Positions 3,623-29,588 of a stretch of DNA of 32,000 nt are shown here, one piece after another. Origin of the DNA: Candidatus Saccharimonadota bacterium. Its GTDB lineage: Bacteria; Patescibacteriota; Saccharimonadia; Saccharimonadales; UBA4665. A program made the position numbers and the translations under genes. The notes under the pieces were generated by a model that worked only from the letters and a program-made list of their open reading frames with translations, searched no databases and was not told where the DNA came from. Numbering within the stretch: position 1 is the stretch's first letter; each line of letters opens with the position of its first letter. The stretch covers positions 1,050,001 to 1,082,000 of the forward strand of contig CP025011.1 in NCBI GenBank assembly GCA_002952755.1, in the 5' to 3' direction.

Positions 3623-4028
3623 ATGACATCTCCTCAGATTTCTCCAGAACATCTCAATCAAATATACCCCCAATTTCTGCAAGATATCAGCGAGGAGTTA
3701 AAGCTAACTCCAGAAGAGCAGATTATTGCAGGGCAGGTAGGCCCAATTACATGGGCAAAATGGAGCGTTTCAGTCTTAAGCGGTGATGAACGGGTAGCCT
3801 ACCCTTATAAAAGTAAATTGCCAAAAGTGCCACCCCTTCTTTGCAACAGAAGTAGAAGCACCAGGAAAACCAACCCTCGATTATCAAGCTGGCTCACTTG
3901 CCGCTAAGGTCGGCTCCATGTATGCGCATGAAGACCAAGGCGTACGGTAACGTTTTGAGAACTTTAGCGAGTTAGCGGCTCTGTTTACCTTTGATGACGT
4001 TCACCACACGGTAGTTGTAGCTGCATAG
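3623..4028 (+). pseudogene. Possible decayed gene: one +1 frameshift plus one in-frame TAA
   Basis: ORF 3623..3907 reads protein-like for about 68 codons, then turns into low-complexity junk (PPLLCNRSRSTRK...). The +1 frame reads protein-like from 3798 (..KCHPFFATEVEAPGKPTLDYQAGSLAAKVGSMYAHEDQGVR) to TAA 3948-3950. It then continues in the same frame for 25 more codons (RFENFSELAALFTFDDVHHTVVVAA) to TAG 4026-4028. The frame switch lies near the run aaaagtgccacccc (about 3823-3836). Confidence 0.3.
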
Positions 4029-4105: not shown

Positions 4106-7100
4106 ATGGGTGGCCGCGTGGTACTATTTCGATATACAACTTTTACAACAGACCAGGTGTGGGGGTACTTTAGAGTGGGCAAGTATACACGCAAAATTAA
4201 AACCTTTTTTGGGCAATCCAAGCGGCGAATTACAAAAATAAGTACATCAAAATATCTACAGGGCAGGCGGGTATGGGCTGGTGGCATTGTTGTAATTATT
4301 CTGATAATTTTCTGGATACTGCCAGCTTTTGCCGCCAAAGCACCAGGTCAGATGGGGTACAGCATCAAACGCGGCGAAGAATGGCTGGTCGCCAACCTCG
4401 CGCCACTCCCTAACTGGCGTGAAAATTTGCGGTTAGATTTTGCGAATAATCGAGTAAACGAAGCAGCGTATGTTGCCGATCATGCCAACCGTCATAGCGT
4501 TACAGATACGTCAAAAACTACAGCAACAATCAACAACCTGCTCGGATCATACGAGAGCGCCTACGAACCAGTACTGGACGAATTAGATAAGCAGCTCAAT
4601 GCGGGCAAAAAGCCGGAACAGGAAGCCATCAAAGACCATCAAGATGATGTCGTCAATATTTACACAACGCTCCAGCTGCTGCGCTTGCAGGCACCTCCAA
4701 CTTCCCAACTTGCGGTACTCACTGCCGTTGACGATACGCAGCGGTATCTAGCGGCTTTAAATGACGCCCTGGGAACAGTACCGCTATCGGCAAGCGATTT
4801 CGCGCAATTGGCTCGACTCAGCTCAATAGGCGTAATTTCACCAGCTGCTGTAACCAGTCTGAGTAACGTAAAAAACAGCCGCCAGTTACATGCGGCACTT
4901 GTTAGCATGGTCAACGACGGGCAACTACCAGCGGACGCTAGCTATAATCTGGATTACGACGTAGTGAAGCACATCGCCCCAACTAAAGCAGCAGCCTTTC
5001 AAACAGAGGCTCAATTTGAAGAAATGCAACGTATTAGCGCCGTGCTGACCGCCAGCCGACCAACAGCCGAACAAAAACAGGCAATTCAGGCGTTCCTGAC
5101 AAGCTACAAACCAGGCCAACAAACCGCGTCAAGCGACATCCAGCCATACGTAACACCAATTGTGTACGGCATGGCACTATCCGGTCAATTGCAGGGCAAC
5201 TTACTAAGCTTAAGTGCAGTGCGTATGAATAGCGACGACCAAGCACTGTTTGATACCTGGAAAGTCGTCCTAGATCCACCAAATCTCAGCGACACCTACC
5301 AAACACTTATGACTGACGCTCAGAGCCAGCCAGCCCTGCATTTGCGCAACCTCGCGCAGACCCAGGCCGAGCTCACCGCAGCGCAAAAGGCCCAGGTAAC
5401 TTATCTAGTAATGCCTCCGGGATGGGGCGTAAATCAGCTGGCAACGCTCAATAAGCAAATGGGTGTAGAAATCGCCGAAACGAGCTTTGCACAGTCCAAG
5501 CCAAACGCAAATCAGGAACTGGCCAGCATAACCATCACTCAACTATCACTTCAAAATGAGCTCCAGCAACTTCAGGCAGCCTACAACGCAAATACAACTA
5601 AGCTGGAAACACAGATCAACAATTTTCAGGGCACAGCAGACCAAGTAACACAGCTCAAGCAAGAGTTAAGCAGTCTCACACAAAGCCAAGCCACAACCAT
5701 TGCCGATTTGCAGGCGCAAATCACGTATATTACCGATGCACACACGACCCTTGGCGGCACCATCACCAACCTGCAACAGCAGCAAGTGACTAATCTGACC
5801 GAGCTTGAGCTACGTGCCGCCACTACCGCCCAAACGATAAGCGACACTACTAAAGCACAGCTGACCGCCTCACTCAACCAGGTCAACTCAACCAGCCAAA
5901 CACTCATTACCAACTTAAGTACACATATTGATAATCTTGGAATCACGCACGTAGCCTTGCGTGATCGACTGAACGATGAGATTACTACCATCAAGAATAA
6001 TTACCAGGAGCTTAAGGCCGATGTCCAAGATCAAATTAATGCTGGAGTAACAACCACTGTCGACTTGCAAACGACGCTTACTCAAACGCGCACCGAGCTG
6101 GCGACACAAACAACTGCGCTCACCAACTTAGGGTCAAGCACGACTGCCCTCACACAGCTTGTCGATCAGGTTAAGAACAATTCCCAGTCCGACTTGCACG
6201 ACCTGCAAGGGCAAATCAACGACATCAAACTCGATCAACAAGCCATTAAGACAGCGACGGCAGATCTGCAGAATATTACACAAACGAGCCAGGCGCTTAC
6301 CAACGAACTGCAAGCGAAAATCAATAGTCTAGGCAGCAGTCAGGCCCAGCTACGCACCGAACTGACCAATGAAATAAACACCGTCAAAGACACCTACGAT
6401 CAACTACGAGAAGATACACAGGCACAGCTAGATGCGGGCAATGCTACCAGTGCGCAATTACAAACGATCTTGACACAGGTACGGGACGAATTAACAACGC
6501 AGAAGGCAAGTGTTGCACAGCTTGGTTCTTCGCACGATGTGCTGAGCCAGTTAGTTGGACAGATAAAAACGACATCCGAGACCGGGCTAACAGATCTGCA
6601 GGTGCAAATTGGAGCCGTGCATCTCGACCAACAAACTACGCAAACTGCAGTAAACAGCCTACAGTCTATTACGCAAACAAGCCAGGCGTTGATTAGCGGG
6701 CTGCAAGCCCGGACGGACGCTCTGGATAGCAGCCAGAGTCAGTTGCGACAAGAGCTAACAGCCGATATTCAGACTGTACAGTCCGACTACACCACGTTGA
6801 CTGCTGGCTTACAGGCCCAAATTAATGCCGGTATAGCTACAACCACCAGCCTTACCACATCACTGCAAACTATTCAGAGCAATCTAGTAGCGCAGGCTGC
6901 CGAGCTCGCATCCCTAGGAACAAGCCATACCACACTGACCGCACTAGTAAACCAAGTCCAAACTACGGCCAACGCGCAAACAGCAGATCTGCAAGGCCAG
7001 ATTAATGCCCTTGATATCAGCAGCCAAAGTGTGAAACATTCGCTCGAAAGCCTGGCTGCCAAGCAAGCTGCCGACCTCACTGGCCTCACTAATCAATTAG

Positions 7101-7819
7101 CAGATCTGCATGTCGTACAGATCGAGGCCCAGGCGGACATCGCCGATTTGGTACAAGCTCAGGCTTCCACCCAAGCAGATACAAACGCGCTGCACACCGG
7201 ATTCGATACACTACAAACCACGCTGCAAGATAGCCTGACAGTGCAGGCCTCCATCCAAGCTGATCTCAGTAATCAGCAGTCAGAACTGGATACGATCACT
7301 GCCCAAACCCAATCGGCTCTCGATACCCTTACCGCCCAACAATCCATTCTTGATGCCCAGCTCACCAATATCAGCAACAATACCACGAGCCTCAGCCAGG
7401 CGATCAATACTGTACAGACCGCAGCTAATACCACACAAACCACGCTCGATACACTGCTCGCTAACGCGCCGTGGGCCATTCCCTCTGGCACCTATGTTAC
7501 GCAAGCCGATTTTAATACCCTGACTGCTCAACTAAATACTCAATTCGCCCAAAAAGCAGCCCAGCTCGACGCCCAATTTCAGGCTTACCAGCAAACGCTC
7601 AACGCCTCAGTCGACCAGCTCAACACGCAACTAAACAACCTGAGTACAACGGTCACCAATACGGCAAATGCCCAAGCTGCAACGCAAGTGCAAGTCAATG
7701 GCCTGAGCACCACCGTTACTACCAACCAAACCAGTGCCCAAAATCAGATCAATACGCTTAGCAGCCAGGTACAAACGCTCCAACAGCAAGTCCAACAATT
7801 GCTGCATCCCGGTTTATAG
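4106..7819 (+). CDS. Giant (1237 aa) secreted or membrane-anchored Q/T/L/A/S/N-rich repeat protein, predicted extended coiled-coil; function unknown
   Basis: Uninterrupted 3.7-kb ORF. It has a basic N-region, then the hydrophobic segment GGIVVIILIIFWILPAFA-AKAPG (signal peptide with an AxA site, or a signal anchor). A roughly 400-aa non-repetitive domain follows, then about 750 aa with heptad-like L/I/V spacing, no Cys and almost no aromatic residues. The start is uncertain: ATG 4106 or GTG 4175. Confidence 0.85.
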   Translation: MGGRVVLFRYTTFTTDQVWGYFRVGKYTRKIKTFFGQSKRRITKISTSKYLQGRRVWAGGIVVIILIIFWILPAFAAKAPGQMGYSIKRGEEWLVANLAPLPNWRENLRLDFANNRVNEAAYVADHANRHSVTDTSKTTATINNLLGSYESAYEPVLDELDKQLNAGKKPEQEAIKDHQDDVVNIYTTLQLLRLQAPPTSQLAVLTAVDDTQRYLAALNDALGTVPLSASDFAQLARLSSIGVISPAAVTSLSNVKNSRQLHAALVSMVNDGQLPADASYNLDYDVVKHIAPTKAAAFQTEAQFEEMQRISAVLTASRPTAEQKQAIQAFLTSYKPGQQTASSDIQPYVTPIVYGMALSGQLQGNLLSLSAVRMNSDDQALFDTWKVVLDPPNLSDTYQTLMTDAQSQPALHLRNLAQTQAELTAAQKAQVTYLVMPPGWGVNQLATLNKQMGVEIAETSFAQSKPNANQELASITITQLSLQNELQQLQAAYNANTTKLETQINNFQGTADQVTQLKQELSSLTQSQATTIADLQAQITYITDAHTTLGGTITNLQQQQVTNLTELELRAATTAQTISDTTKAQLTASLNQVNSTSQTLITNLSTHIDNLGITHVALRDRLNDEITTIKNNYQELKADVQDQINAGVTTTVDLQTTLTQTRTELATQTTALTNLGSSTTALTQLVDQVKNNSQSDLHDLQGQINDIKLDQQAIKTATADLQNITQTSQALTNELQAKINSLGSSQAQLRTELTNEINTVKDTYDQLREDTQAQLDAGNATSAQLQTILTQVRDELTTQKASVAQLGSSHDVLSQLVGQIKTTSETGLTDLQVQIGAVHLDQQTTQTAVNSLQSITQTSQALISGLQARTDALDSSQSQLRQELTADIQTVQSDYTTLTAGLQAQINAGIATTTSLTTSLQTIQSNLVAQAAELASLGTSHTTLTALVNQVQTTANAQTADLQGQINALDISSQSVKHSLESLAAKQAADLTGLTNQLADLHVVQIEAQADIADLVQAQASTQADTNALHTGFDTLQTTLQDSLTVQASIQADLSNQQSELDTITAQTQSALDTLTAQQSILDAQLTNISNNTTSLSQAINTVQTAANTTQTTLDTLLANAPWAIPSGTYVTQADFNTLTAQLNTQFAQKAAQLDAQFQAYQQTLNASVDQLNTQLNNLSTTVTNTANAQAATQVQVNGLSTTVTTNQTSAQNQINTLSSQVQTLQQQVQQLLHPGL
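5735..7050 (+). repeat. Intragenic tandem repeat, period exactly 393 nt (131 aa), about 3.3 copies
   Basis: Landmarks stay in register. L(N/Q)x(V/I)(N/T)xTSQ(T/A)L starts at 5873, 6266 and 6659 (393 nt apart each). LG(S/T)S starts at 6128, 6521 and 6914 (393 nt apart each). Copy 1 (5735-6127) is the most diverged and copy 4 is partial. Conservation is stronger at protein level than at DNA level. Confidence 0.85.
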
Positions 7820-7856
7820 ATAGCCATCAAAAAGTAGATAAGAAGGGTAGGGACAT

Positions 7857-8078
7857 ATGGCCAAAAAACAAACAAAAAAAGTAGCATCCAGTAACGTAGC
7901 GATGAGCATTTGGCAGCTGGGTATATATATTTTTATAGCCATCGTGCTCTTTTGGCTGCTGGGGCTAGCCTTAGACCTAGCTAAATGGCTTCTAAAAGTC
8001 GGGCTCTTCGTATCGCTGATCGTGACGATTGCCTGGCTGGTTAATGCCTACCTAACGAGCCAAAAGCGAAGCCGCTAA
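7857..8078 (+). CDS. Small membrane protein (73 aa, two predicted TM helices), likely co-transcribed with the giant gene
   Basis: Basic N-terminus (MAKKQTKK), two hydrophobic spans (IWQLGIYIFIAIVLFWLLGLAL and VGLFVSLIVTIAWLVNAYL) and a basic C-terminus (QKRSR). A GGGTAGGG purine-rich stretch lies 5 nt upstream. The gap after the giant ORF is 37 nt with no hairpin. Confidence 0.6.
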   Translation: MAKKQTKKVASSNVAMSIWQLGIYIFIAIVLFWLLGLALDLAKWLLKVGLFVSLIVTIAWLVNAYLTSQKRSR

Positions 8079-8087
8079 ACACATCCA

Positions 8088-8768
8088 TTACTTGGCGGCG
8101 ATGCTGCGCACTGTCTTGTGCTGTTTGCGGCCTTCCTCGTCGACGTGGTAAATGTAGATTTCGCCAAATTGCGTTTCGACTTCTTCGATGCCTGTATCGC
8201 TTACATTTTCCAGATATTTCATGAGTGAGCGCAGCGTATTGCCATGCGATACTACTAAAATATTTTCGCCGTCGAGCAGGCGGGGCAGGATATACGACTG
8301 GTAAAATGGCACGGCACGCTCGTAAACCTTCTGGAGCGTTTCGCCCCCGGGGATGGGATGCGCCCAACTACGGCGAATTTTAGTAAAGGTGTCCTCGCCC
8401 AGCTGCTCTAATACTTCCCATTTATTGAGGCCCGTATATTCACCATAATCGCGCTCGTTCAGTTCGGCATGGGGAGTGTGCGTCAGCTCGCTCTTGCCTG
8501 CGGCTTCGAGAATACCGAGCAGTGTCTCTACAGTGCGGATTTGCTCAGAAGTATAGGCGTGATGCAGTTCAATATCCTGAATAATCTCGCCCAGCTGCCC
8601 GGCCTGTGAGCGGCCTTTGTCGGTTAAATGCACGTCTGTCCGGCCAGTCCATTTGCCTAAAAGGTTCCACTCGGACTCAGCATGGCGGATAAGCATAAGC
8701 GTACCCGGCTCAACGTTTGATTGCTTTTTCGAGGTCTTCGTTGCACTATGTGAGGTATCCATAGGCAT
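8088..8768 (-). CDS. gpmA: 2,3-bisphosphoglycerate-dependent phosphoglycerate mutase
   Basis: [12 protein letters not shown] (RHGxxxWN catalytic motif), [13 protein letters not shown], and [20 protein letters not shown] (dPGM-specific HGNSLRAL.KYL). The start is uncertain among M1 (8768), M3 (8762) and M25 (8696). Confidence 0.85.
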
Positions 8769-8770
8769 TA

Positions 8771-8799
8771 AGTATACGACAAGGAGTAAAAAGTATGAA
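8771..8799 (-). promoter_or_regulatory. Putative gpmA promoter TTCATA-17-TATACT overlapping the eno SD and start codon
   Basis: Minus strand: TTCATA (8799-8794), 17-nt spacer, TATACT (8776-8771). The -10 ends 2 nt from ATG 8768 and 8 nt from ATG 8762, so the transcript would be leaderless or nearly so. Confidence 0.35.
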
Positions 8800-10078
8800 C
8801 ATTGCGTCGATTAAAGCGCGCCAAATCTTTGATTCCCGCGGGTACCCCACTGTTGAATGCGACGTGACACTAGCTGACGGCAGCGTAGGCCGCGCCGCAG
8901 TACCATCTGGCGCCTCCACTGGTAGCGCAGAAGCGCTAGAATTACGTGATGGCGCAGCAGATTATAGTGGCAAAGGGGTCAACCAAGCTGTGCAGAACAT
9001 CGAAGAACGCATCGCACCGGCTCTAACCGGGAAAGACGCTTCAAACCAACGGGCAATCGACCAAGCCATGCTCGACCTCGACGGGACACCGAATAAAAGC
9101 AGCTTAGGCGCAAATGCCATCCTGGCAGTCTCACTAGCAACCGCAAAAGCTGCGGCAGGAGCCGCAGGGCAGCCGTTGTACGCCTACGTTGGCGGCCTGG
9201 CCGATAACAGTACCTTCACGCTTCCTATGCCCATGCTCAATATCCTGAATGGTGGCAAGCATGCCGATGGCTCGACTGATATCCAGGAATTCATGGTGTT
9301 GCCGCTGGGTGCCCAAGACCTGACTACTGCTCTTAAAATGGCCAGCACCATCTACCACCAGCTCGGCAAAGTACTAAAAAACGCTGGCTACGCTACTACC
9401 GTCGGCGATGAAGGCGGGTATGCGCCGAACGTCAAAGGCGGTTCAGACGAAGCATTAGCGCTCATCTCCCAAGCCGTAACCGAGGCTGGATACGACTTAG
9501 GTAAGGAGGTTTCACTCGCCCTGGACGTGGCCTCCAGCGAACTCACGGATGATCACGGCTACAATTTTGCCCGGGAGGGTAAACGCTACAGCAGCAGCGA
9601 ACTCATCGCTATGTACGAATCGCTCGCACAAAAATACCCGCTGGTATCCATCGAGGACGGACTAAGCGAAGATGATTGGGAAGGTTGGCAAGCACTCACG
9701 CAAAGCTTAGGCGGCAAATTGCAACTAGTGGGCGACGATCTGCTCGTTACCAACACCAAATTGCTCGAAAAAGCCATTGAGCTAAAAGCCGCTAATGCCA
9801 TCCTCATCAAACCGAATCAGATCGGCACCCTCAGCGAAACGATCGACGCCGTCACCATGGCTCAAAAGGCTGGTTGGCGAACAGTCATGTCGCACCGTTC
9901 AGGCGAAACCGAGGACACTACCATCGCCCACCTGGCAGTGGGGCTTAACACCGGCCAAATCAAAACCGGCTCGTTCTCGCGCTCCGACCGTATCGCCAAA
10001 TACAACGAACTCCTACGTATCGCCGAGTCTCTGCCGGGAGCGAAGTTGGCTCAGCCATTCGCCACCAAAAAAGACTAA
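8795..10078 (+). CDS. eno: Enolase (phosphopyruvate hydratase)
   Basis: Full-length canonical enolase: [42 protein letters not shown] and [21 protein letters not shown] lies 8 nt upstream of the ATG. Confidence 0.97.
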
Positions 10079-10090
10079 AGGCGCATGCCG

Positions 10091-10096
10091 TATAAT
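10091..10096 (+). promoter_or_regulatory. Perfect TATAAT -10 box 6 nt upstream of the Crp-family gene ATG (leaderless geometry)
   Basis: cgTATAATcatagtATG: the hexamer is 10091-10096 and the ATG is at 10103. No SD and no good -35 (A-rich). Confidence 0.35.
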
Positions 10097-10102
10097 CATA
10101 GT

Positions 10103-10747
10103 ATGGATGTCAGAGAAAAGGTCGCGGCTTTCTTCGAGTCATACCCGCAGCAAATATACCAGAAACGCAAACTGCTACTGCTCGCCGAGGAACCTGTCCT
10201 TTCAGTCTTCTACCTTCTTGAAGGCCGCGTTAGTCAATACGATATCGCTCCAAACGGTAATGAAGTAGTTGTCAATATTTTTAAGCCAGGGGCATTTTTC
10301 CCCATGGCTTCGGCACTGAATGACACTGAGAATCATTACTTCTTTGAGTCGAGTATCAAAAGCACAGTTTGCGTTGCACCAAAGGCAGAGGTGGTGCGTT
10401 TCTTAGGCGAAAATCCAGAGGTGTTACTCGACCTATTGGCCAGAGTGTACCGGGGCACGGACGGCGTGTTGAGGCGCATGGCACATCTCATGGGCGGCGA
10501 TGCCCAGACGCGGCTGGTCTTTGAATTATTAAACACCGCATACCGGTTTGGCGAACGGGAACCTGGCGACAATGTCGTCGTACACATAACTGAGGCTGAT
10601 CTTGCCAAACGCTCCGGCCTCGCCCGCGAAACAGTCAGCCGGTTACTGCAGAACCTAAAGACAACTGGTCTGATCGAAATGAGCCGCAGCAGTATTACGA
10701 TCATACATATCCCAACTCTGGAAGCCCAGCTCGGTACTGCGTTATAG
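10103..10747 (+). CDS. Crp/Fnr-family transcriptional regulator (cNMP-binding-like domain plus C-terminal HTH)
   Basis: N-terminal beta-roll pattern (FYLLEGRVSQY...GAFFPM) and a C-terminal HTH, ITEADLAKRSGLARETVSRLLQNLKTTGLI. Its recognition helix RETVSR parallels E. coli CRP RETVGR. The ORF track starts at 10085. I prefer 10103 (MDVREKV) because of the TATAAT-6-ATG arrangement. Confidence 0.85.
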   Translation: MDVREKVAAFFESYPQQIYQKRKLLLLAEEPVLSVFYLLEGRVSQYDIAPNGNEVVVNIFKPGAFFPMASALNDTENHYFFESSIKSTVCVAPKAEVVRFLGENPEVLLDLLARVYRGTDGVLRRMAHLMGGDAQTRLVFELLNTAYRFGEREPGDNVVVHITEADLAKRSGLARETVSRLLQNLKTTGLIEMSRSSITIIHIPTLEAQLGTAL

Positions 10748-11909: not shown

Positions 11910-13085
11910 ATGGGTATAGCTGATTCACATGTCCTTGCTGTCAACGCCGGCTCGTCGAGCATTAAGATTGCTGTATTCGACTCGCCAAAGGTGCAAAAAG
12001 TAGCCGAAGCGACGGTAGAAAATATCGGCCAGCCATCTGCCAGCCTCCTGACAGCAAAAGGCCGTATCCATGCTGTTATTCCGACACATGCGGATGCTGC
12101 CACACTTCTTGTAAAGTGGCTGCAGGCATATAGCGACGAGTCGAGCGTCATTGCCGTGGGCCATCGGATTGTACATGGCGGTCCGGCATACGCACAGCCG
12201 CAAACCATCACCCAAGACCTGTTAGAGGACCTCCAAAAACTCGCAGCATTCGACCCAGAGCACCTGCCTATGGAGCTGGCACTTGTTGGTACTTTTCAGA
12301 AATTACTCCCTAAGGCAAAGCAAGTGGCCTGTTTCGACACTGCTTTTCACCATGACCTGCCACAGCGGGCACGCCTCCTGCCCATTCCTCGCCAGTTAAG
12401 CGAGAAGGGTATTCGACGGTATGGCTTCCATGGCTTATCCTATGCCTATATCTTGGACGAACTGCAACGAGTCGAAGGTGAGGCAGCCGCTCGCGGCAAA
12501 GTGATCATCGCCCACTTAGGTAGCGGCGCGAGCCTAGTTGCACTGCAAAATGGCAAACCCATTGACACCACTATGAGCATGACTCCCGCCTCGGGCATCC
12601 CCATGAGCACGCGCGCCGGTGACCTCGACCCCGGACTTGCGCTTTATCTGGCAACTACCGAAGGTTACGACGCAGCACGCTTTAATCATATGGCACATTT
12701 TGAGTCAGGACTGTTAGGCATGTCAGAGACCAGCGCCGATATGAAAAGATTGCTCGAAATGGAAGAAAAAGACCAGCGGGCGAAGGATGCCGTTACTGTA
12801 TTTTGCTACCAAGTAAAGAAGACTATTGGTAGCTTTGTAGCGGCGCTGGGCGGTCTCAACACGATCGTCTTCACCGGGGGTATGGGCGAAAATGCGCCTA
12901 AAATCAGGCGGCGAGTCTGCGAGGGACTAGATTTTCTGGGCGTCAGGCTAGATGAAGTACGCAACGCAGCAGGAGAACGCCTCATATCCGCCGATGGCAG
13001 TCAGACAGGAGTGCATGTTATTCATACCGATGAGGCCATAACAATCGCCAAAGAAACCGCGGCGCACATATTCCCAATAACCTAA
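11910..13085 (+). CDS. ackA: Acetate kinase
   Basis: [16 protein letters not shown] (the N.GSSS.K motif), [16 protein letters not shown] and [11 protein letters not shown]. Full length, 391 aa. Confidence 0.95.
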
Positions 13086-13095
13086 AAGGAGCACT

Positions 13096-15471
13096 ATGGA
13101 CTTACCAATCGAGGGCCCGCTGGACGAAAAAACACTACATAACATACATGCCTACTGGCGTGCCGCCAATTATCTCTCGGTCGGCCAGATTTATCTCTGT
13201 GATAACCCTTTGCTCAAAGAACCGCTCAGATTGGAGCATGTCAAAAAATTGCTTTTGGGCCATTGGGGCACGACGCCAGGTCAGAACTTCATTTACGCTC
13301 ACCTTAACCGCGTCATTAAAGCCAACAACCTCAATATGGTGTATATTTCCGGGCCGGGCCATGGTGGTCCGGCACTTGTCGGCAATGTGTACTTAGAAGG
13401 TACTTTTTCTGAGTATTATCCTGAAGTAACACTAGATGAATCAGGTCTTAAGAGATTGTTCCAAATGTTCTCATTTCCCGGCGGACTCTCCAGCCATGTA
13501 TCACCGCAGGTGCCGGGATCAATCCACGAAGGGGGCGAACTTGGATACAGTCTCAGCCACGCCTTCGGAGCGATCTTAGACAATCCAGACCTCATCACCG
13601 CTTGTGTAGTGGGCGACGGCGAAGCAGAAACCGGGCCGCTGGCAACTGCTTGGCATTCCAATAAATTTATTAACCCAAAAACCGATGGCGCAGTGCTGCC
13701 AATCCTGCACCTTAACGGCTATAAAATCAGCAACCCAACCATCCTGGCACGCATCGAGCATGACGAACTGGAGCAATTACTGCGGGGCTACGGGTGGACA
13801 CCCTACTTTGTTGAAGGCGACGAACCGCTGCGCATGCACCAACTCATGGCCGCTAAACTGGACGAAGCAATCGGCGAGATTAAAAGAATTCAAAGCAATG
13901 CCCGGAATAATAACGACGCTACCAGACCACGCTGGCCGATGATCGTGCTCAATTCTCCAAAAGGCTGGACCGGACCGCAAACTATAGACGGCAAGCAGAT
14001 AGAAGGCAACTTCCGATCGCACCAAGTGCCCCTCATGGTCGATGCCTCGTGCCCAGATAACGTAGCCGTTCTTGAAGCATGGCTAAAAAGCTACAAGCCC
14101 GAAGAGTTGTTTAATGAACATGGCCGGTTGCTGCCAGAACTTGCGGCACTAGCTCCTACCGGCCAACGACGAATGGGTGCCAATCCGCATGCTAATGGCG
14201 GCAGCTTCATGCGGGAGCTCGTTTTACCCGACTTTCGAAAGTACGCCGTGGCAATCCCGCAAAGAAGCGTAGCTAACGAAGGCAATACGCATGCCCTCGG
14301 CCCCTACCTAAGAGACGTTATTGCGCAAAATACTGCAAGGCATAATTTCCGGATATTTGGTCCAGACGAGCTGGTATCTAATAGATTAGAGGCGGTGTTC
14401 GAAGCAACCAAACGCCAATGGGAAGCCCGAATTCGCCCCACCGATGAATCCTTAGCAACCGAAGGAGCGGTGCTCGACTCGATGCTGAGCGAACACCAGG
14501 CAGAAGGCTGGCTAGAGGGTTATTTGCTTACCGGCCGGCATGGGTTGCTACATAGTTACGAAGCGTTTATTCGCATCGTCGATTCGATGGTTAACCAACA
14601 TGCTAAATGGATTAAAATGTCGAACGAGCTACCTTGGCGACACCAAATAGCCTCGCTCAATTATCTGTTAACTTCTCACGTTTGGCGGCAAGATCACAAC
14701 GGGTTCACCCATCAAGACCCAGGTTTTATCGACCATTTACTCAACAAAAAGGCCTCGGTGGTACGTATTTATTTGCCGCCCGACGCCAACACACTGCTTT
14801 CCACTATCGATCACTGCCTCAAGAGCCGTAACTATATTAACCTGACGATTACCGGCAAGCACGATAGTCCGCAGTGGCTGACCATGGACGAAGCCATTGA
14901 GCACTGCACGAAAGGTATCGGCGTCTGGGAGTGGGCAAGCAATGATGCGAGCGACCCCGATGTAGTGATGGCTTGCGCAGGCGATGTCCCTACCCTTGAG
15001 ACCCTGGCTGCCGTCTCGATCCTACGGGCGCACCTACCTGAGCTCAAAATCCGCGTCGTAAATGTTATTGACCTTATGCGTCTCGAACCCGACACCGAGC
15101 ACCCTCATGGTTTGAGCGACCCAGAGTACGATGCATTATTTACTAAAAACAAAGAGATCATCTTCGCCTTCCATGGATACCCGTGGGTTATCCATCGACT
15201 CACGTATCGGCGGGCCAATCGTAATATGCACGTCCGTGGGTATAAGGAAGAGGGGACTATTACCACAGCTTTCGACATGACAGTACGCAATGACATGGAT
15301 CGTTTTCATCTCGTAATGGACGTTATTAACCGTCTTGGCATGAACAGCCATGCTGCTATAACCTTAAAAGAACAGATGCAGCAGAAGCTGCTGGCCCACC
15401 AAGCCTATATCACCGAACACGGCGTTGACATGCCTGAGATCCAAAGCTGGCGATGGGATATTAACAGCTAG
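13096..15471 (+). CDS. xfp: Xylulose-5-phosphate/fructose-6-phosphate phosphoketolase
   Basis: 791 aa. [10 protein letters not shown], the [15 protein letters not shown] signature and [11 protein letters not shown] (ThDP motif). SD AAAGGAG lies upstream, 10 nt after the ackA stop, so this is an operon. Confidence 0.97.
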
Positions 15472-16108
15472 AGTCGATCAGGGCCTGGAGCTTTTCAAAA
15501 GCATCGCGGGGATTTTTGGCTTTGTGAATAAAGCCGCCGGTATTGAGTACTTCGATGCCGCCGCGGACGAGGCCGCAGGCAACATGGTCGTTGATGCCGC
15601 CATCCCAACCGAGTTCGATATCCGGTTTTAGTTCCAGCGCCCGTGTAGCCTTTTCCAGCAAAGTGAGATCGCTAGTACTGCCACCGTGATAGCCTAAATT
15701 GCCACTAAAAACGAGCAGATGCTCGAATGCCTGCAGCAAATCTTCAACACTGCCGATTGTTGTTTGTTGTAGCAAAGCGACACCCGCCTTGATGCCGCTG
15801 TCATGCAGTGCCTCGGCGAACGCGGCGTGGTCAACATCGGCCTCGAGGTGGAAGATAACCAGGTCCGGTTGCAATGCGCGCATCTCCTCAAGGTGGTCTT
15901 GCGGGCGCTGATACATCACGTGCAGATCAACAATAATATCTTTGTTATCCGGGCCCCACAGTGCGCTGAGGGGAGGGGAAGTAGTCGGTGCGAATACGCC
16001 GTCCATGAGGTCAATATGAATGCGTTTGGCAAACGGCTGCACTACATTCATTTGCTCACGGTACTCCTCCAGACTAAAAGCGGTAATCGTTGGCGTGATT
16101 ATGGACAT
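15461..16108 (-). CDS. rpe: Ribulose-phosphate 3-epimerase family protein (divergent)
   Basis: [13 protein letters not shown] (H.D.MDG.F.P), DLHVM, VIFHLEA and ELGWDGGIN match the metal and catalytic positions of the Rpe TIM barrel. The N-terminus is atypical. The 3' end overlaps the xfp stop by 11 nt. Confidence 0.75.
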
Positions 16109-16113
16109 GATTC

Positions 16114-16617
16114 CTAGGTCTCCTCATCTAATTTACGAACCCGGCGAGCGTGGCGCTCGGCATCACTATAGGGTGTTGCCAGCCACACTTCGATGGCGCG
16201 CTTCAGCTCATCTTTGTCTAAAAAACGAGCCGATAAGCTCAGCATGTTAGCATGATTGTGCTGGCGGCTGAGGCGCAAAATCTCGTACGGGTCATCGCTC
16301 ATGTGGCCTTCGGCGTCGACCGGCTCTTTGGCGACGGCTAATCCGTAGAACAGCGTACAGCGCACGCCTTTTACCCGATTAGCGGCCATAGCTTCACCTT
16401 GGCCGCTGCCGCCCATAATGATGCCTGTCTGGCAATCCCCATGTGCCACGGCGCGTGCTGCAGGGAATACGAAATCGGGATAATCGTCGTCCATGTCGAG
16501 ATTCTCGGGGCCAAAGTCAACGATCTCGTGGCCCAATGTTTGGGCAAAATCTTTCAACTCTTGGTAGAGCCCACCATATGCTAAACCTGCGTGATCGGTT
16601 GCTACTGCGATTCTCAT
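16114..16617 (-). CDS. rpiB: Ribose-5-phosphate isomerase B
   Basis: MRIAVATDHAG...GIIMGGSGQGEAMAANRVKGVRC is the canonical RpiB/LacAB fold, with the longer actinobacterial-type C-terminal extension. The start was moved from 16656 to ATG 16617, where homology begins. A 5-nt gap separates it from rpe. Confidence 0.9.
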   Translation of the reverse strand: MRIAVATDHAGLAYGGLYQELKDFAQTLGHEIVDFGPENLDMDDDYPDFVFPAARAVAHGDCQTGIIMGGSGQGEAMAANRVKGVRCTLFYGLAVAKEPVDAEGHMSDDPYEILRLSRQHNHANMLSLSARFLDKDELKRAIEVWLATPYSDAERHARRVRKLDEET

Positions 16618-16755
16618 GAGAATTTTAGTGTACGCCTTGACGTACAACCGGCGCAAGCGTATACCGGAATGGTTGATAACGAGCGGTTCCTTGCAAAAAA
16701 GACTGCCGCTATTAGACTCTAAAGATTGCAGTTAAAACTCATGAAGGAGCGTTCT

Positions 16756-17412
16756 ATGAAGTTCTTTATCGATACCGCGGTGCTTAACGAGATCAAAAAA
16801 GCAGCTGACTACGGTGTACTCGACGGCGTAACCACCAATCCCAGCCTGATGGCTAAAGTCGGCATCAAAGGCCGTGAGGCTATTCTGAAACACTATAAAG
16901 ACATTTGCGAACTTGTACCTGGTAACGTCAGCGCCGAGGTCATCTCTACTGACTTCGAGGGCATGATGAAGGAGGCTCACGAACTAGCCGCCATCGATCC
17001 AAAAATTGTGGTGAAGGTCCCATTCATCGGCGATGGTGTTAAGGCCATTAAAGCGCTGAGCGATGAAGGCATTCGCACTAACTGCACCCTCATTTTCCAG
17101 CCCATGCAAGCAGTCATCGCCGCTAAGGCAGGCGCCAGCTATGTCAGCCCCTTCATCGGCCGCTTAGACGATATCGCTACCGACGGGATGCAGTTAATTC
17201 GCGACTTAACGCTCATCTTCAAGAACTATAACTTCCAAACCGAAATTCTGGTTGCCAGCGTTCGCCACCCTATGCATATGGTAGAAGCCGCCAAAGCTGG
17301 CGCCCATGTTGCGACCATCCCATTCGCCGTCATTGAGCAACTTTTCAAGCACCCGCTCACCGATAGCGGCCTTACTAAATTCCTCGCTGACTACGAAGCA
17401 AGCCAGAAATAA
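16756..17412 (+). CDS. tal: Transaldolase, short (Fsa/TalC-type, 218 aa)
   Basis: MKFFIDTA...[10 protein letters not shown]...VKVP...TNCTLIF...[18 protein letters not shown] lies 6 nt upstream of ATG 16756. The ORF-track TTG at 16726 is an upstream extension. Confidence 0.93.
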
Positions 17413-17429
17413 TAAGACAAGGAAAAAGC

Positions 17430-19451
17430 ATGAATCCTGACCCCCAAGTTGTCGAACAAGCTATTAACACGATCCGCATTTTATCGGCCGCCCAGCCCGA
17501 AAAAGCAAACAGCGGCCATCCTGGCGGTGCAATGGGCGCAGCCGCGTTTATCCACATTCTGTATAGCGAATTTCTGGTTGAAGATCCGGGTGATCCACAC
17601 TACTTTTTCCGCGACCGTTTTTTCTTAGATCCGGGCCACATGAGTGCTATGCTTTACAGCGTCTTAGCACTCACCGGACGAATGCCGCTTGAACAGCTGA
17701 GTCAGTTCAGACAGTGGGGTTCGCTAACACCCGGTCACCCGGAGCGTTCCGTCGAACATGGTATTGAAAATACCAGCGGTCCGCTTGGCCAGGGCCATGG
17801 TTTTGGGGCTGGCGCCGCAATCGCCGCTAAATTCCTGTCTGCCCGCTTTGGCGACTGGATGAATCACGATATCTACTCCTTCATTAGCGACGGTGGTATC
17901 CAGGAAGAAGTCAGCCAAGGAATTGGTCGCATTGCCGGCCGGCTTGGCCTCGGAAACCTCACCATGTTCTACGACTCAAACAACGTCCAGCTCTCCACGT
18001 TAACCACCGCCACCACCCACGAAGACACTGCCAAGAAGTATGAATCATGGAACTGGCATGTCGTTACCATCGACGGGGAAAATGTAGACGACATCCGGCG
18101 CGCGCTCAACGAAGCTAAGGCAGAAACTAAGCGGCCCACGCTCATTATTGGCAAAACCATTATGGGCAAGGGCGCTGTCGATCCTGATGGAAAGCCATTC
18201 GAAGGCAAGGTGAGCATGCACGGCCAGCCCATGTCGGCAGCCGGCGCCTCATTCCCGAAGACCATCGCGGCCCTGGGCGGCGACCCGGAAAACCCCTTCG
18301 TAATTCCCGAAGCCGTCAAAGCACTGTACGAACAGGCCGCCGAACGCAAACGCAGGGCAATTGCCGAGCGCAAAGCAGCAGAAGCCACATGGCGCACGGC
18401 CAATCCAGAATTGTCCAAAGAGCTAGACAGCTACATCAACGGCGACGTACCTCAACTTGATTGGAGTACTATCGCAGCTACGCAAAAACCCGGCTCTGCC
18501 ACCCGCGCCAGCGGCGCCCACGTACTTAGTCATTTTGCCGATGAAGTCGGAAACATGCTCGTAATGAGCGCCGACCTCGCGAACAGCGACAAAACCGACG
18601 CCTTCCTGGCCAAAACACACCCGCTCGACGCCGGCGACTTTAGCGGTGCCTTCCTGCATTGCGGCGTCAGTGAATTCTCTATGGCCGATCTGGCTATTGG
18701 CATGGCGTTGCATGGTGGCGTTATTCCGGTATGCGCCACCTTCTTCCCATTCTCCGACTACCAAAAGCCGGCCTTGCGCTTAGCGGCACTCATGGAGCTG
18801 CCCGTGAAGTTCATCTGGACACATGATGCCTTCCGGGTCGGCGAAGACGGCCCTACCCACCAGCCAATCGAGCAAGAGACACAGCTGCGCCTGCTCGAGA
18901 AAGTACACAACCATCACGGTCAACCCGGCTTACTGGCGTTACGCCCGGCCGATTCAGCGGAAACAACTATGGCCTGGAAAATGGCGCTTGAAAACACCAC
19001 CACACCCACCGGCCTCGTCCTCACTCGTCAAAACATCACCGAAGTTACCGACTTTATGAAGGCACAAGACGCCGCCAAGGGTGGCTATGTGGCCGTAGAT
19101 TGCGATGGGACTCCGGAACTTGTTGTCGTAGCCAATGGCAGCGAAGTAGGTACCGCTTACGACGCGATCCAACTGCTACCAGAACACAAGATCCGCCTCG
19201 TGTCCGTGCCCAGCGAAGGCCTATTCCGTGAGCAACCAACAGACTACCAGGATATTGTATTGCCTAAAGACGTCCCGCGCTTCGGCATCACCGCCGGATT
19301 GAGCGTCAACTTGCTTGGGTTAGTGGGCGACGTCGACCATATCCATGGCCTCAACCACTTCGGCTTTAGCGCGCCATATCAAAAACTCGATGAAGAATTC
19401 GGCTTTACTCCTGAAAAAATCGCTGAGAAGTTGAAGGCTAGTATAGCTTAA
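17430..19451 (+). CDS. tkt: Transketolase
   Basis: 673 aa. SGHPGG, GPLGQG, ISDGGIQEEVSQG (the GDG.l.EG ThDP motif variant), HDAFRVGEDGPTHQPIEQ. It begins 17 nt after tal. Confidence 0.97.
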   Translation: MNPDPQVVEQAINTIRILSAAQPEKANSGHPGGAMGAAAFIHILYSEFLVEDPGDPHYFFRDRFFLDPGHMSAMLYSVLALTGRMPLEQLSQFRQWGSLTPGHPERSVEHGIENTSGPLGQGHGFGAGAAIAAKFLSARFGDWMNHDIYSFISDGGIQEEVSQGIGRIAGRLGLGNLTMFYDSNNVQLSTLTTATTHEDTAKKYESWNWHVVTIDGENVDDIRRALNEAKAETKRPTLIIGKTIMGKGAVDPDGKPFEGKVSMHGQPMSAAGASFPKTIAALGGDPENPFVIPEAVKALYEQAAERKRRAIAERKAAEATWRTANPELSKELDSYINGDVPQLDWSTIAATQKPGSATRASGAHVLSHFADEVGNMLVMSADLANSDKTDAFLAKTHPLDAGDFSGAFLHCGVSEFSMADLAIGMALHGGVIPVCATFFPFSDYQKPALRLAALMELPVKFIWTHDAFRVGEDGPTHQPIEQETQLRLLEKVHNHHGQPGLLALRPADSAETTMAWKMALENTTTPTGLVLTRQNITEVTDFMKAQDAAKGGYVAVDCDGTPELVVVANGSEVGTAYDAIQLLPEHKIRLVSVPSEGLFREQPTDYQDIVLPKDVPRFGITAGLSVNLLGLVGDVDHIHGLNHFGFSAPYQKLDEEFGFTPEKIAEKLKASIA

Positions 19452-21879: not shown

Positions 21880-24800
21880 CTAGCTCTTAAGGCGAGACGC
21901 CTGCGTACGCATTCTTTGTAATAAGCCTTTATAAAATGTAGGGGAATAATAGAGGTCCAGCTGCCGCGTCTCCTCGGACCGGCAGACATCGTGGCTGCCT
22001 TGCTCCAAGCCAAAATCGGGCAAAACTTGTAATTTGAGTCCACGGGCGTCCGCAAGAACGCGATCATGACTCACCCAACCAATCTGGGGCGAGAAAAATT
22101 GGCGACTGCTTAGCGTACTATACAGACCGCCTTTAATCATATCGCCACTTCCGTCATTATTCTTACCTATCGCACTCGTACCCCCATGCCGCAGTGACAA
22201 AACCTGGAGAGCGATGAGTGTGCTTTCCATGCCATCCATGGCCTCGTCTAGCGAAATCCAACTGTCTTCTGTATACGCGCCGAGAGTTGCAAGTGACTTA
22301 ACCTCTGCATCGACGGGAAGAGAGGGCCGGCGCCTAACTCCTTGCTCTCGCACTTTAGGTTCCGGGCGCTCATCAGTGTGTACAGAGGCGGCGGCGTTGG
22401 GTTGCTTCTGGGGTCCTGCATCTTCTTCCCATTCGTTATCTGCCTTGAGGGGTGCTATTTGTTTGGCATTGATATATTTTGCTTGCAGAAGCTGATTACG
22501 TACAGCGCTTTCCGGATCAGACGCTGCTTGTTCTGCCGTAAGGACGACCGAATCGCGATCGATATTTGGGGCATCAGACGCCGGCTTAAGGCCCCGATCG
22601 ATAAGACTGAGTAGGATAGAAAATGGGTAGATTCTCACCGCCTTAACGCCAGGCAAAGGCCTAATTTCGGGCTCTGCTATATCGAGGCTATCAAGCAATT
22701 TGGTCATAGTGGGGAGCTTGTATCCAAAATATGCAGCTACGATGGCCTGCGTCACTTCCCAGGGCTGCAATTTGCGAGGTTTTATGCTATCTGCATACGC
22801 TTCGCCCCACTCCCGAAGCACAAAATCGCTTGGCCGCGACCTTTCATTAGCCCGAAGCGAAACGATCTCAGGGCGCTTGTGATCGTCCAAATCATTAAAT
22901 TTATACATAAAGCCCGACGGTGAAAACTCAGCTCTCGCTGCCATTTCACTAAAGCTTATGTATAAGGAATTGTCTGCGATAGGGGCTCTCTCACACTCTA
23001 GTCGAACTCTTTCTGCATCCTCGGCAGTCACATGATTGGCGACACCCATAATTTCGTAGAGAGGATTGCGACGCTTGGATATTGCAGTAATACCATTAGC
23101 CGGATTAGCGATAAAATCCCTTACCACATCGTTACCGAGTTCGTCGCCAAGGTCCACTACGGGCACATCTGTTTCGTCGGCAATGGGTATCTTTTCTAGT
23201 TCGTTAGCTATTCTTTTAACGCTTTTCATACTATACACAAGAGGAGACCGGTTATGTTTAGTGATACGATCTAAAGGCTCAATTTGTAATTGATTAATAA
23301 TTCGTCTAACCATGTTACGGGATGCGCCAAGCAGTCGTGCAATCGCTTCGTCCCCCAACTCAGCAGTACTGACCAGCTTGGCGACCGGATTACTGTCAAA
23401 GTATGCGTGCGTAGCGGGTGAATAGAAGCGCACATAGTGCGTCTCGCCCGACTCATCTTCAACCCAAGCACCTACATACCTCATAGCGGGATCGTTCAAT
23501 TTCTTGACTATGTCGAATAACCATTCTACAGGCACGCCTTCGGGCGCTTTGTCAGTAAGTGGTTTATAGTCTTCGGGCGGTAACTTGGCCCGATCCGCAG
23601 CCGACATCGTTACTTCAGCCACCGATAAACCCGTCACAAGCGTATCCTGCAACTCGACGGGCGGCATATACAAATCGGGTCTTTGACGAGGTGTTCTGCG
23701 TTTTAGAGCTGCAGCTCCGATCTGATGTTTCGTCTCTGTTGCGTGTTCACTCTCAGGTAGCCCAACTATGTCTTGCTCGCCTTCTGGCAAAGTGTTACCC
23801 AGTGATACATCGCTAACTACGCCCTCATGATCGCTTATATTTTCCGCAGGATCTTCTTGACTGTCCTCAAATTCTTCTTCCTCGTCCTGGCCAATATAAT
23901 ACCCTGCTGTTATGGTAGCCTTTTCGAGGCCAAACGCTCCAAAAACCGACGCAATCGGACGGCCGGTTTCGGTTTCGCGGGGTAAGACCTCTGAGACAAC
24001 CGCTGACTTATCTCCATCTTTACGCAAAACACGGCCAACCCATTGTGCAATCCGCCACTCTGGATTTTTACCGAGTAATATGAGCCCGTCAAGATCGCGA
24101 ATATTCAGGCCCTCTCTACCCGTATCTACAGTGGTTAAGATCAAACGCTCGCCACGACGGATACGATCAATCTCCATTGCCGTAGACGAATTCGCGAATT
24201 TACCCACAGCGCTCGCTATCTCTTCACTCCGAAACTTAAAACTAGGATGCGGCGTGATCTTGCTGCTCGCATATAGTTGATTGAGTGCTTCTGCGATTGC
24301 TTGAGCCTGTAAGGACTCGCCCCCGGGCTCGCAGACTATGAGTGTTTTGAGTCCATTGCGTACATAATCGGCAGCAAGGTTGACTGCAAGGTTAAAGGCT
24401 TCAGCCCCTTCGCTGCGATAGGTAAACAATTGCACGGGAGACAAAATGCCATCTCTAATAAAATCCACAGGCTTCCCGGCGTGGGAGTGCGGATAACGCT
24501 GCTTTAGGTCGCGTAACTCGTCATACTTTTCGGTAGCGGTAAAAAGGTAAGGGGCTACCATGGTTCCAAGCAAGAGTCGTGCCTTAGGAGCGAGGGCCAG
24601 GCCGTGGGCTTCGTCTACCACATAGCTCACAGTCGCGTCCGGGTAGATTGCCCCTCTCGATAAGGCTTTCATATATGATCGGGGAGTTGTAACAAGCGCA
24701 TGACATTCATCGTGCCCCTGATGAGCATTCGCATAGTAGGCACCAACGGTTATATCGCGATCAGCAGCGGCCAGGAACTGCATAAATGTCTCTGATGGAT

Positions 24801-29075: not shown

Positions 29076-29588
29076 ATGAGCAACGACGAAACTGAGCTAA
29101 TCGCTCGCATTGTGAATGGCGATACTGAGGCATATCGCACAGTAGTAGACCATTACACAGCAACACTATATCGCCATTGCTTTTACATTATGCGCGATGA
29201 GGATACGGCGGAGGACATGGCGCAAGAAGCGTTCATCCAAGCTTATCGTCACTTGTCTAAGTACGATCCCGAGAAAGGTAGCCTCAAAAGCTGGTTGCTA
29301 ACCATCGCCACCCGGCGCTGTTTAAGTGAACTGAGGCGCAATAGGGCAGTACGGCTCATGGATGACGATATCGTAATTAGTCCACTGCGCACCGAGCAAT
29401 ATGCTAAGGAGCAGGAGGTACACGATGCGGTACTCCGTTTAAAGCCAAAGTATCGCACGGTAGTTACCTTGCACTACTGGCATGGCTATAGCTACGCCGA
29501 GATCGCTGCCGCTATGGAGGTACCGATTGGATCTGTCCGCGGATGGCTCTATCGCGCCAAACAACAACTTAAGGAGGCTTTGCTATGA
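29076..29588 (+). CDS. RNA polymerase sigma factor, ECF (sigma-70 group 4) family
   Basis: Region 2 (YRTVVDHYTATLYRHCFYIMRDEDTAEDMAQEAFIQAY) and region 4 HTH (YSYAEIAAAMEVPIGSVRGWLYRAKQQL). 170 aa. Confidence 0.92.
   Translation: MSNDETELIARIVNGDTEAYRTVVDHYTATLYRHCFYIMRDEDTAEDMAQEAFIQAYRHLSKYDPEKGSLKSWLLTIATRRCLSELRRNRAVRLMDDDIVISPLRTEQYAKEQEVHDAVLRLKPKYRTVVTLHYWHGYSYAEIAAAMEVPIGSVRGWLYRAKQQLKEALL

Follow-up and report, generated by a model that had tools for sequence, protein, structure and literature searches.

Variable length is a familiar theme among coiled-coil proteins of the cell surface. The streptococcal M proteins form long parallel coiled coils outside the cell, their heptads are imperfect and the number of their tandem repeat blocks varies between lineages, and the stalks of trimeric autotransporters likewise vary by whole repeat modules. 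Other coiled coils, such as tetrabrachion (the stalk of the Staphylothermus marinus S-layer) and Braun's lipoprotein (Lpp), are anchored in a membrane and set distances within the envelope; tetrabrachion has a C-terminal anchor, a four-stranded right-handed coil built on hendecads and a distal domain that forms a canopy, and Lpp is 58 residues long. Here a gene is described whose product (termed here the rod protein) is predicted to be a long modular coiled coil, and which lies within a 32,000-nucleotide stretch of the genome of a Candidatus Saccharimonadota bacterium, an ultrasmall, TM7-type member of the Saccharimonadales (positions 1,050,001 to 1,082,000 of contig CP025011.1, assembly GCA_002952755.1); this whole stretch is termed the window, and coordinates refer to it. 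What appears to be new is an uncharacterised, Patescibacteria-restricted family with a new N-terminal domain (the N-domain), a putative N-terminal anchor, and a clean, phase-preserving quantisation of length.

Those Saccharibacteria that have been cultivated grow attached to host bacteria; apart from pili and a few adhesins, little is known of the molecules that make or space this contact (PMC10633639; bioRxiv 10.64898/2026.03.03.709456). On balance, though by no great measure, we lean towards the view that the rod protein is a membrane-tethered or secreted, fibrous, homo-oligomeric, extracytoplasmic coiled coil of a Saccharimonadales subclade, with looser relatives in other Patescibacteria. 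Judged from the sequences of the protein and its homologues, its description as an extracytoplasmic modular rod is well supported, and a role as a surface fibril, spacer or adhesin is plausible. A first-pass annotation of the window, made without database searches, had pointed in the same direction; its individual claims are taken up below together with the results that bear on them.

The open reading frame (ORF) of the rod gene occupies positions 4106..7819 of the forward strand and, when read from the ATG at 4106, is maximal at 1,237 residues, the length given by the first-pass annotation. The ORF is thus as described, but its start probably is not. Existing gene calls differ in the interval 4106-4177: NCBI and Logan use the ATG at 4106 (1,237 residues), whereas JGI uses a GTG at 4175, yielding a protein (P0001, 1,214 residues) that is 100% identical to the window protein and starts 23 codons later. 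The GTG follows a Shine-Dalgarno-like GGGGG run 9 nt upstream, whereas the ATG has only an AGGA, at 17 nt; moreover, the N-terminus obtained from the GTG aligns with the N-termini of homologues. Because of this ribosome-binding site (RBS) position and this alignment, the real rod protein is probably the 1,214-residue product of 4175..7819, and its residues are numbered from GTG 4175 throughout. From this start the protein opens with a basic tail (residues 1-32, including ten K or R; 4175..4270), followed by a hydrophobic helix, VWAGGIVVIILIIFWILPAFA, predicted from sequence and homologue alignment (residues 33-53, 21 in all; 4271..4333), which ends in LPAFA and is followed by AK. Next come the all-alpha N-domain (residues 55-446; 4337..5512) and a continuous coiled-coil rod (residues 447-1096; 5513..7462).

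From residue 447 to the C-terminus (about 770 residues), the protein is rich in Q (16%), T (17%), L (13%) and A (11%), contains no C and very little W (0.1%), F (0.7%) or Y (0.9%), and has a combined K and R content of 3.2%, in keeping with the earlier description of this region as almost free of cysteine, aromatic and charged-cluster residues. At the nucleotide level, positions 5001-8000 show a strong AT skew (+0.23 to +0.32), together with a negative GC skew over the rod-coding region; both follow from the codon bias of Q (CAR) and T (ACN) rather than from any replication signal.

When the sequence is compared with itself, an offset of 131 residues or 393 nt gives much the strongest signal, in both protein and DNA. 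A hidden Markov model (HMM) built from all modules of the family finds exactly three full-length, gap-free copies within nt 5861-7039, at 145-154 bits: module 1 (residues 563-693; 5861..6253; 153.9 bits, model positions 1-131), module 2 (residues 694-824; 6254..6646; 145.0 bits) and module 3 (residues 825-955; 6647..7039; 146.5 bits, matched to residue 954), all on the forward strand; the phase of the module boundary is arbitrary. Since the flanking rod gives just generic matches below 5 bits, the array comprises 3.0 copies and not the approximately 3.3 proposed at first, although the landmark positions then given for the repeat are correct. The repeats had also been called exact, which holds for their period and for the absence of indels but not for their sequences: the copies are just 39-46% identical in protein and 46-51% in DNA, and at codon position 3 identity falls to 24-37%, that is, to saturation. 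Tandem Repeats Finder, run on the window, does not detect the 393-nt array, the divergence between copies being too great. Each stretch between successive LG[ST]S motifs (63 and 68 residues) was also considered as a possible half-module, and the search for such an internal repeat, for which these two motifs served as the cue, gave no significant similarity. Because third codon positions are saturated and the modules are positionally orthologous across species (see below), the duplication is an old one, maintained under protein-level constraint, and does not reflect recent slippage, which is what the first-pass annotation had argued.

The modules can also be followed through the family. There are 39 close homologues (E<1e-185) with the same architecture, the named ones being Candidatus Saccharimonadales; all named homologues, taken together, come from Candidatus Saccharimonadales, Saccharibacteria or other Patescibacteria, so that the earlier surmise of a reduced-genome, epibiotic lineage fits. 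A scan of the genome collection finds only seven loci among GTDB species representatives. Two of them bear implausible labels, namely L010 (OZ246414.1, a 915-kb chromosome labelled Gammaproteobacteria) and L011 (DATHNF010000068.1, labelled Verrucomicrobiia); these labels likely reflect mislabelling or mis-binning, as the gene content and a 41-56% identical rod protein suggest Saccharimonadales.

Within the repeat region of the family alignment, exactly 131 residues are missing in 25 of 38 homologues and exactly 262 in a further 11. Correspondingly, the module HMM always counts whole modules: three in 2 clusters (the window protein and P0002), two in 25 and one in 12. Repeat copy number, whose comparison had been recommended across strains, was here compared across homologues, and the idea of a rod with fixed length increments is strongly supported by the outcome. 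In homologues with two modules, the first is the orthologue of module 1 (60% identity) and the second that of module 3 (58% identity), whereas module 2 is an extra middle module common only to P0002 (55% identity) and 45-46% identical to its neighbours. One-module proteins fall into two N-domain length classes, a longer clade (407-417 residues) and the standard 393 residues, and therefore module number has changed more than once. The only other indels of the rod within the family are of 18 (7+11) and 21 (3×7) residues.

The significance of these particular lengths is apparent from the hydrophobic pattern of the rod, which was traced by finding, with dynamic programming, the best path of 3- and 4-residue steps through family-averaged hydrophobicity. 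This yields one unbroken seam of 183 core positions over the 650 residues from 447 to 1096, with a mean hydrophobic weight of 0.74 on the path versus 0.09 off it, and spectral analysis gives a periodicity of 3.54-3.58 in every rod segment. Each 131-residue module corresponds to exactly 37 core steps, which make up 14 heptads and 3 hendecads (3.54 residues per turn); the seam therefore stays in phase when a module is gained or lost, as it also does with the 18- and 21-residue indels. In canonical heptads, position a is occupied by L (28%), I (25%), V (14%) and Q (12%), L, I and V together making up 67%, and position d by L (65%); position e is K or R in 20% of cases and position g is D or E in 13%. 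By established coiled-coil rules, acidic g facing basic e points to parallel, in-register strands, as an antiparallel arrangement would bring like charges together; the rod is thus probably a parallel, in-register homo-oligomer. What parallel coiled coils generally exhibit (a periodicity near 3.5, a continuous a/d seam and complementary e/g charges) is found here, and the coiled-coil rod anticipated by the first-pass annotation is borne out to this extent. The structure prediction that it had also called for gives a divided answer: an AlphaFold 2 (AF2) monomer model of residues 420-1214 is all helix, as expected, but of low confidence, with a predicted local distance difference test score (pLDDT) of 60, a predicted template-modelling score (pTM) of 0.33, and no confident intrachain packing. 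A Foldseek search with this model found nothing meaningful (all E>0.4) and is uninformative because of the model's low confidence.

The strands are probably two or three in number. At 0.148 nm per residue, a fully extended rod plus C-terminal segment would measure about 111 nm in the window protein, about 92 nm in a two-module and about 72 nm in a one-module homologue, one module adding about 19.4 nm.

Downstream of the seam lies a conserved break, NAPWAIPSGTYVTQADF (residues 1097-1113; 7463..7513), which is non-helical in the AF2 model (this model breaks at the conserved NAPWAIPSGTY stretch) and which consists of an invariant P-W (P1099, W1100) and then a Y-V-T-Q-x-[DEQ]-[FL] motif; in the form YVTQADF the latter occurs once in the rod protein, and it is present at the equivalent site in 29 of 38 homologues. 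Beyond the break, the AF2 model and seam analysis indicate a C-terminal coiled-coil segment (residues 1114-1214; 7514..7816), which ends in ...QQVQQLLHPGL. Throughout the family the extreme C-terminus (window 7802-7816) keeps the pattern QQL-x-x-A-x-P-x-x-G-L-COOH, which matches no sorting motif known to us and could serve in recognition.

At the other end of the protein, the N-domain is modelled with confidence: AF2 predicts residues 55-470 to be all-alpha, with 18 helices (about 17 of them within residues 55-446), a pLDDT of 85 and a pTM of 0.85, and an invariant PPGW lies near the end of the domain. A Foldseek search with this model against PDB and BFVD returned no significant match (best E 0.05, TM-score<0.25). 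The unique domain of about 400 residues noted at first thus corresponds to a conserved domain of about 390. Its first part (residues 57-158; 4343..4648) resembles DUF5667 (PF18915), the window protein matching profile positions 4-95 of 99 with 18.7 bits (E 0.0024) and the homologue P0026 matching with 25.6 bits, both below the gathering score of 27; in all, eight of the 12 family N-domains compared reach E<=0.01, the best 7.4e-6. A profile of these 12 N-domains, searched against 1.84 billion representatives, retrieves 105 proteins at E<=1e-3. Of these, 18 clusters (at 50% identity) lie below E 1e-30, many of which share the architecture of the rod protein and which include proteins labelled Saccharimonadales (one with the NCBI name 'DUF5667 domain-containing protein'), Patescibacteria group and Kerfeldbacteria. 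Among the weaker matches are proteins (E 1e-22 to 1e-10) that carry PF18915 above its gathering score; most such DUF5667 proteins have a hydrophobic, signal-peptide-like start and an S/G/P-rich tail. (A word-indexed search with the same profile found fragments only.) The start of the N-domain accordingly reads as a divergent DUF5667, a relatedness at the superfamily level that stays below the gathering score.

All full-length homologues begin with a K/R-rich tail of about 25-65 residues, mostly 30-45, which by the positive-inside rule would be cytoplasmic. Because the DUF5667 relatives mostly have signal-peptide-like starts and the N-terminal tail is basic, the placement of the N-domain and rod, some 1,160 residues, outside the membrane is well supported, at least as far as sequence can indicate. 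The Sec-type N-terminus first proposed for the protein agrees with these relatives, with the basic tail and with the AFA site.

No family description covers the protein as a whole: apart from sub-cut-off coiled-coil noise (Filament, SHE3, SMC, Rad50, Mplasa_alph_rch), the full rod protein has no match in Pfam or NCBIfam, nor does it have one in PHROG or any fold match in PDB or BFVD, so the earlier failure to recognise a characterised family was warranted. The literature searched contains no paper on the rod family and mentions DUF5667 nowhere; an apparent mention of 'DUF378' (a family that adjoins rod genes, as described next) in PMC4786415 is actually DUF3782.

Starting 37 nt after the rod gene, with a good RBS and no terminator-like site in between, an ORF at 7857..8078 on the forward strand encodes a 73-residue protein with two hydrophobic, presumably transmembrane (TM), helices; here the first-pass annotation is confirmed. 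It had also treated this protein as the partner of the rod protein, but a conserved partner it is not: among 5.8 billion clusters it is found only as itself, and it has no Pfam match at E<=0.1 and no NCBIfam match at E<=1. The recurrent neighbour within the family is instead a DUF378 (PF04070) two-TM protein of 63-71 residues, whose gene directly adjoins the rod gene in six distinct lineages. In L002/L009, L004, L005/L012 and L015 it follows the rod gene in the same direction; in L001 and L008 it lies upstream and points the other way. At L010 the same position is taken by a two-TM protein of the lmo0937 family (NF033488, 6e-13), to which the 73-residue protein shows a weak 28-residue similarity (E 0.008). 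The 73-residue protein itself belongs to neither family: a BLASTP comparison with the L002 DUF378 neighbour produced no alignment, a phmmer search with a DUF378 query found nothing in the window, and there is no NF033488 match (criterion >=30 bits). Across 14 loci no other neighbour is common to more than four. Gene order thus indicates that a small two-TM neighbour is a real positional trend that involves more than one family, and a physical partnership with the rod protein may be supposed.

These features may be combined into the following scheme. The N-terminal hydrophobic helix would direct export through Sec, either as a signal-anchor, in which case the basic tail would stay cytoplasmic, or as a signal peptide cut after AFA, in which case the protein would be held non-covalently. 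There is strong support for the next part, in which the 390-residue all-alpha domain, opening with the divergent DUF5667, adjoins the membrane and is followed by the 650-residue seam of heptads with regular stutters, then by the Pro-Pro-Trp / YVTQxxF break, and then by about 100 more coiled-coil residues. Two or three parallel strands would form a rod of about 110 nm. The length of the rod depends on the number of 131-residue modules (1, 2 or 3 across species). As a fibril or spacer projecting from the cell, it would fix a distance, which could be that to a host cell or other surface or that separating layers of the envelope, and its membrane partner would be the small two-TM protein encoded next to it, an orphan here but DUF378 in most species. 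A bolder version, which we offer as a tentative and rather doubtful conjecture, is that the rod protein is a Patescibacteria-specific molecular ruler, with a DUF5667 base, steps of about 19.4 nm and a two-TM partner, that sets the stand-off of an epibiont from its host cell or from an envelope layer. Should this be true, the ruler would constitute a new lineage-specific apparatus for host contact or envelope spacing, unrelated to pili or known adhesins.

Several observations weigh against parts of this scheme. The predicted helix at residues 33-53 may act as a signal-anchor or may instead be removed as a signal peptide. Motifs for anchoring to the wall are missing (there is no LPXTG, SLH domain or Gram_pos_anchor Pfam match), as is a second TM segment, and the distal end lacks a globular head, which is unusual for an adhesin. 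The L006, L007 and L011 loci, and the more distant L016, have no small two-TM neighbour. The extended 70-110 nm rod is a prediction, and the low-confidence AF2 model places a helix break in each module. As to strand number, the signals conflict: the a/d asymmetry is dimer-like, whereas the weak PDB profile matches are mostly to trimeric fibres (gp26 at E 4e-4, then sigma-1, YbgF, spike HR1 and UspA1, the last at E 0.09). The break adds a lead in the trimeric direction, in that YVTQx[DEQ][FL] resembles the beta-layer motifs of alpha/beta coiled coils, such as 'GTRYVTHKQL' and 'NFVTKTEF' of MPN010 (PMC4786415), which are defined by a hexad or nonad insertion, a motif of the [aliphatic]-A-T-K-x-[DE] type, and a three-residue beta strand in a trimer.

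Other explanations share some of this evidence. If the helix is a true signal peptide, the protein could be cut after AFA and released, to act at a distance or to form an outer layer or matrix (S-layer-like or a sheath). The hydrophobic stretch does end in a P-x-x-A-x-A motif, and remote DUF5667 relatives mostly start with short hydrophobic, signal-peptide-like segments; in a reading of the 36 aligned sequences that include the AFA site, position -1 is A or G in 32. Yet the remaining four have D, V or R at that position, the stretch is long at 21 residues, the basic tail ahead of it (mostly 30-45 residues) keeps its character and, in part, its sequence (S.S.Y..D.R.W) among homologues, and Pfam and NCBIfam scans detect no self-assembly or wall-binding domain. 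Release seems unlikely, if a possibility to be taken seriously. We regard as less likely still an arrangement in which the protein has the same location but forms no extended fibril, its helices (each about 95-125 residues) folding back, in the manner of spectrin, EzrA or BAR domains, either into a compact antiparallel bundle, about 15-18 nm in size, or into a lattice resting on the membrane or wall. This would account for the helix breaks of the AF2 model, which, among others, recur with the 131-residue period at residues 652-657, 783-786 and 913-917 (one LG[ST]S site per module), and among the low-scoring Foldseek matches of the rod are BAR domains, fragments of SMC arms and three-helix bundles. 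Those matches all have E>0.4, however, and come from a model with a pTM of 0.33; the heptad seam continues uninterrupted through the LG[ST]S sites, where the pattern is L-x-x-L-G-S-S-[T/H]-x-x-L; and basic e with acidic g favours parallel packing. Copy numbers of 1, 2 and 3 all occur, moreover, and a change between odd and even would flip the direction of everything downstream. A fold-back bundle is thus disfavoured both by the lack of confident intrachain packing and by the coexistence of odd and even module numbers.

Two further possibilities would remove the protein from the cell surface altogether. JGI labels on homologues ('chromosome segregation ATPase', 'SbcCD ATPase subunit') would place it in the cytoplasm, in the SMC/Rad50/DivIVA/EzrA class of proteins that serve the cytoskeleton, the chromosome or cell division, and there are sub-threshold NCBIfam matches to the coiled-coil arms of SMC, Rad50 and ASRP. 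These matches cover the coiled coil only, at scores remote from their cut-offs (SMC 38.8 bits versus 729, ASRP 55 versus 300, Rad50 28 versus 700), and there is no ATPase head and no SMC_N or AAA Pfam match, for which reasons an SMC, Rad50 or SbcC ATPase identity was rejected. The Q/T-rich, charge-poor composition is likewise unlike that of SMC arms, and the basic N-terminal tail and DUF5667 relatives place the bulk of the protein outside the cell, so that membership of this class is very improbable. Even harder to credit is a phage origin, with a prophage encoding the protein as a tail fibre, tail needle or tape-measure protein. That idea draws on the best PDB sequence match, which is to the P22 tail needle gp26, on the tail-fibre and tape-measure proteins that fill the top BFVD rows, and on the fact that tape-measure proteins also set a length by their own length. 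The BFVD matches are non-significant (E>=0.05, TM-score<=0.18), however, neither the rod protein nor three nearby ORFs has a PHROG match (E<=0.01), the neighbours are metabolic genes, and homologue loci lack nearby phage genes, in contexts that differ by species.

The neighbours of the rod gene in the window belong to core fermentative metabolism, without signs of mobile elements: an enolase, a phosphoglycerate-mutase-like gene (His_Phos_1) and a Crp-type regulator at 8088-10747, and, clustered at 11910-19451, genes for acetate kinase, phosphoketolase (XFP) and transketolase. A 1,173-residue ORF on the reverse strand (21880-25401) has an N-terminal DEAD/ResIII helicase match (residues ~120-290), its remaining ~880 residues having no Pfam family. 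On the forward strand, ORFs of 287 residues (2124-2987) and 94 residues (3623-3907) match neither Pfam nor PHROG, and one of 312 residues (29585-30523) has no Pfam match; scans for Rfam families and tRNAs in the window were negative. The rod gene has a different chromosomal context in every species. In a separate assembly of the same organism, a 2,678-bp Logan contig (L014, 1-440) stops where the rod gene has its 3' end, shortly before the 73-residue gene, which may reflect either an assembly break caused by the repeat or strain variation. At L002 (9189-9970) and L004 (4769-5659 and 8802-9869), Fic-domain genes, one of them accompanied by a VbhA antitoxin, are found a short way past the DUF378 gene; L004 further carries a gene resembling AEP-TOTE primases and one for an SNF2 helicase, which suggests a variable or mobile region adjoining its rod gene. 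Some 5 kb upstream of the rod gene, L002 (1-1226) encodes a 1,395-residue SpaA-type pilin-like protein and a sortase, and at L015 (3038-3802) a heliorhodopsin gene lies immediately upstream of the rod gene; these count as further envelope features of the Saccharimonadales genomes concerned.

The rod family is a candidate for host contact or spacing and, if the favoured reading holds, surface structures of about 72, 92 and 111 nm are predicted for species with one, two and three modules, respectively. The family also gives DUF5667 and DUF378, both domains of unknown function, their first structural context and, more generally, provides a clean natural example of coiled-coil length evolution through phase-preserving module indels. 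Should the rod protein prove to be a generic envelope protein, its annotation is nevertheless corrected: it is not an SMC/SbcC ATPase, and its start probably lies 23 codons downstream of the NCBI call.

Among described systems, the Pam pilus of Mycosynbacter was considered and set aside, being composed of Ig-fold donor-strand pilins unrelated to the rod protein. EzrA shares with the rod protein an N-terminal TM segment followed by a long helical repeat region, and SMC arms share sub-threshold profile matches, but the topology suggested here is the opposite (with the bulk outside), and there are neither ATPase heads nor confident antiparallel packing. The typical DUF5667 proteins, which occur in Patescibacteria and other bacteria, are related through the first ~100 residues of the ectodomain (APGQLGY.IKRGEE...), which match nearly the full profile; they have short signal-peptide-like starts, S/G/P-rich tails and sometimes three DUF5667 copies, but no 770-residue rod. 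Trimeric fibres (the stalks of UspA1 and YadA, P22 gp26 and reovirus sigma-1) resemble the rod in their polar, Q/N/T-rich coiled coil and in the weak PDB matches, though these reach E values of only 4e-4 to 0.1 and are driven by composition. The rod has no beta-barrel anchor, head or neck (none of the YadA-type anchor, head or neck domains is found by Pfam), its a/d asymmetry argues against a trimer, and, to our knowledge, the source organism has no outer membrane.

Closer in general design are the M proteins, which, like the predicted rod, have a long parallel coiled coil and tandem modules that vary in number; the a/d pattern of the rod is dimer-like. There is no detectable homology, however, and the rod differs in its putative N-terminal anchor, in lacking a YSIRK signal and in a C-terminus that has neither LPXTG nor a hydrophobic segment; it is also Q/T-rich and charge-poor, its 131-residue module is longer, and its globular domain is proximal rather than distal. 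Tetrabrachion and Lpp are likewise not homologous to the rod, which consists mainly of heptads, with a period of 3.54 and three stutters per 131 residues, and has no distal domain; what they have in common with it is the concept of a ruler and a non-heptad periodicity that tunes supercoiling.

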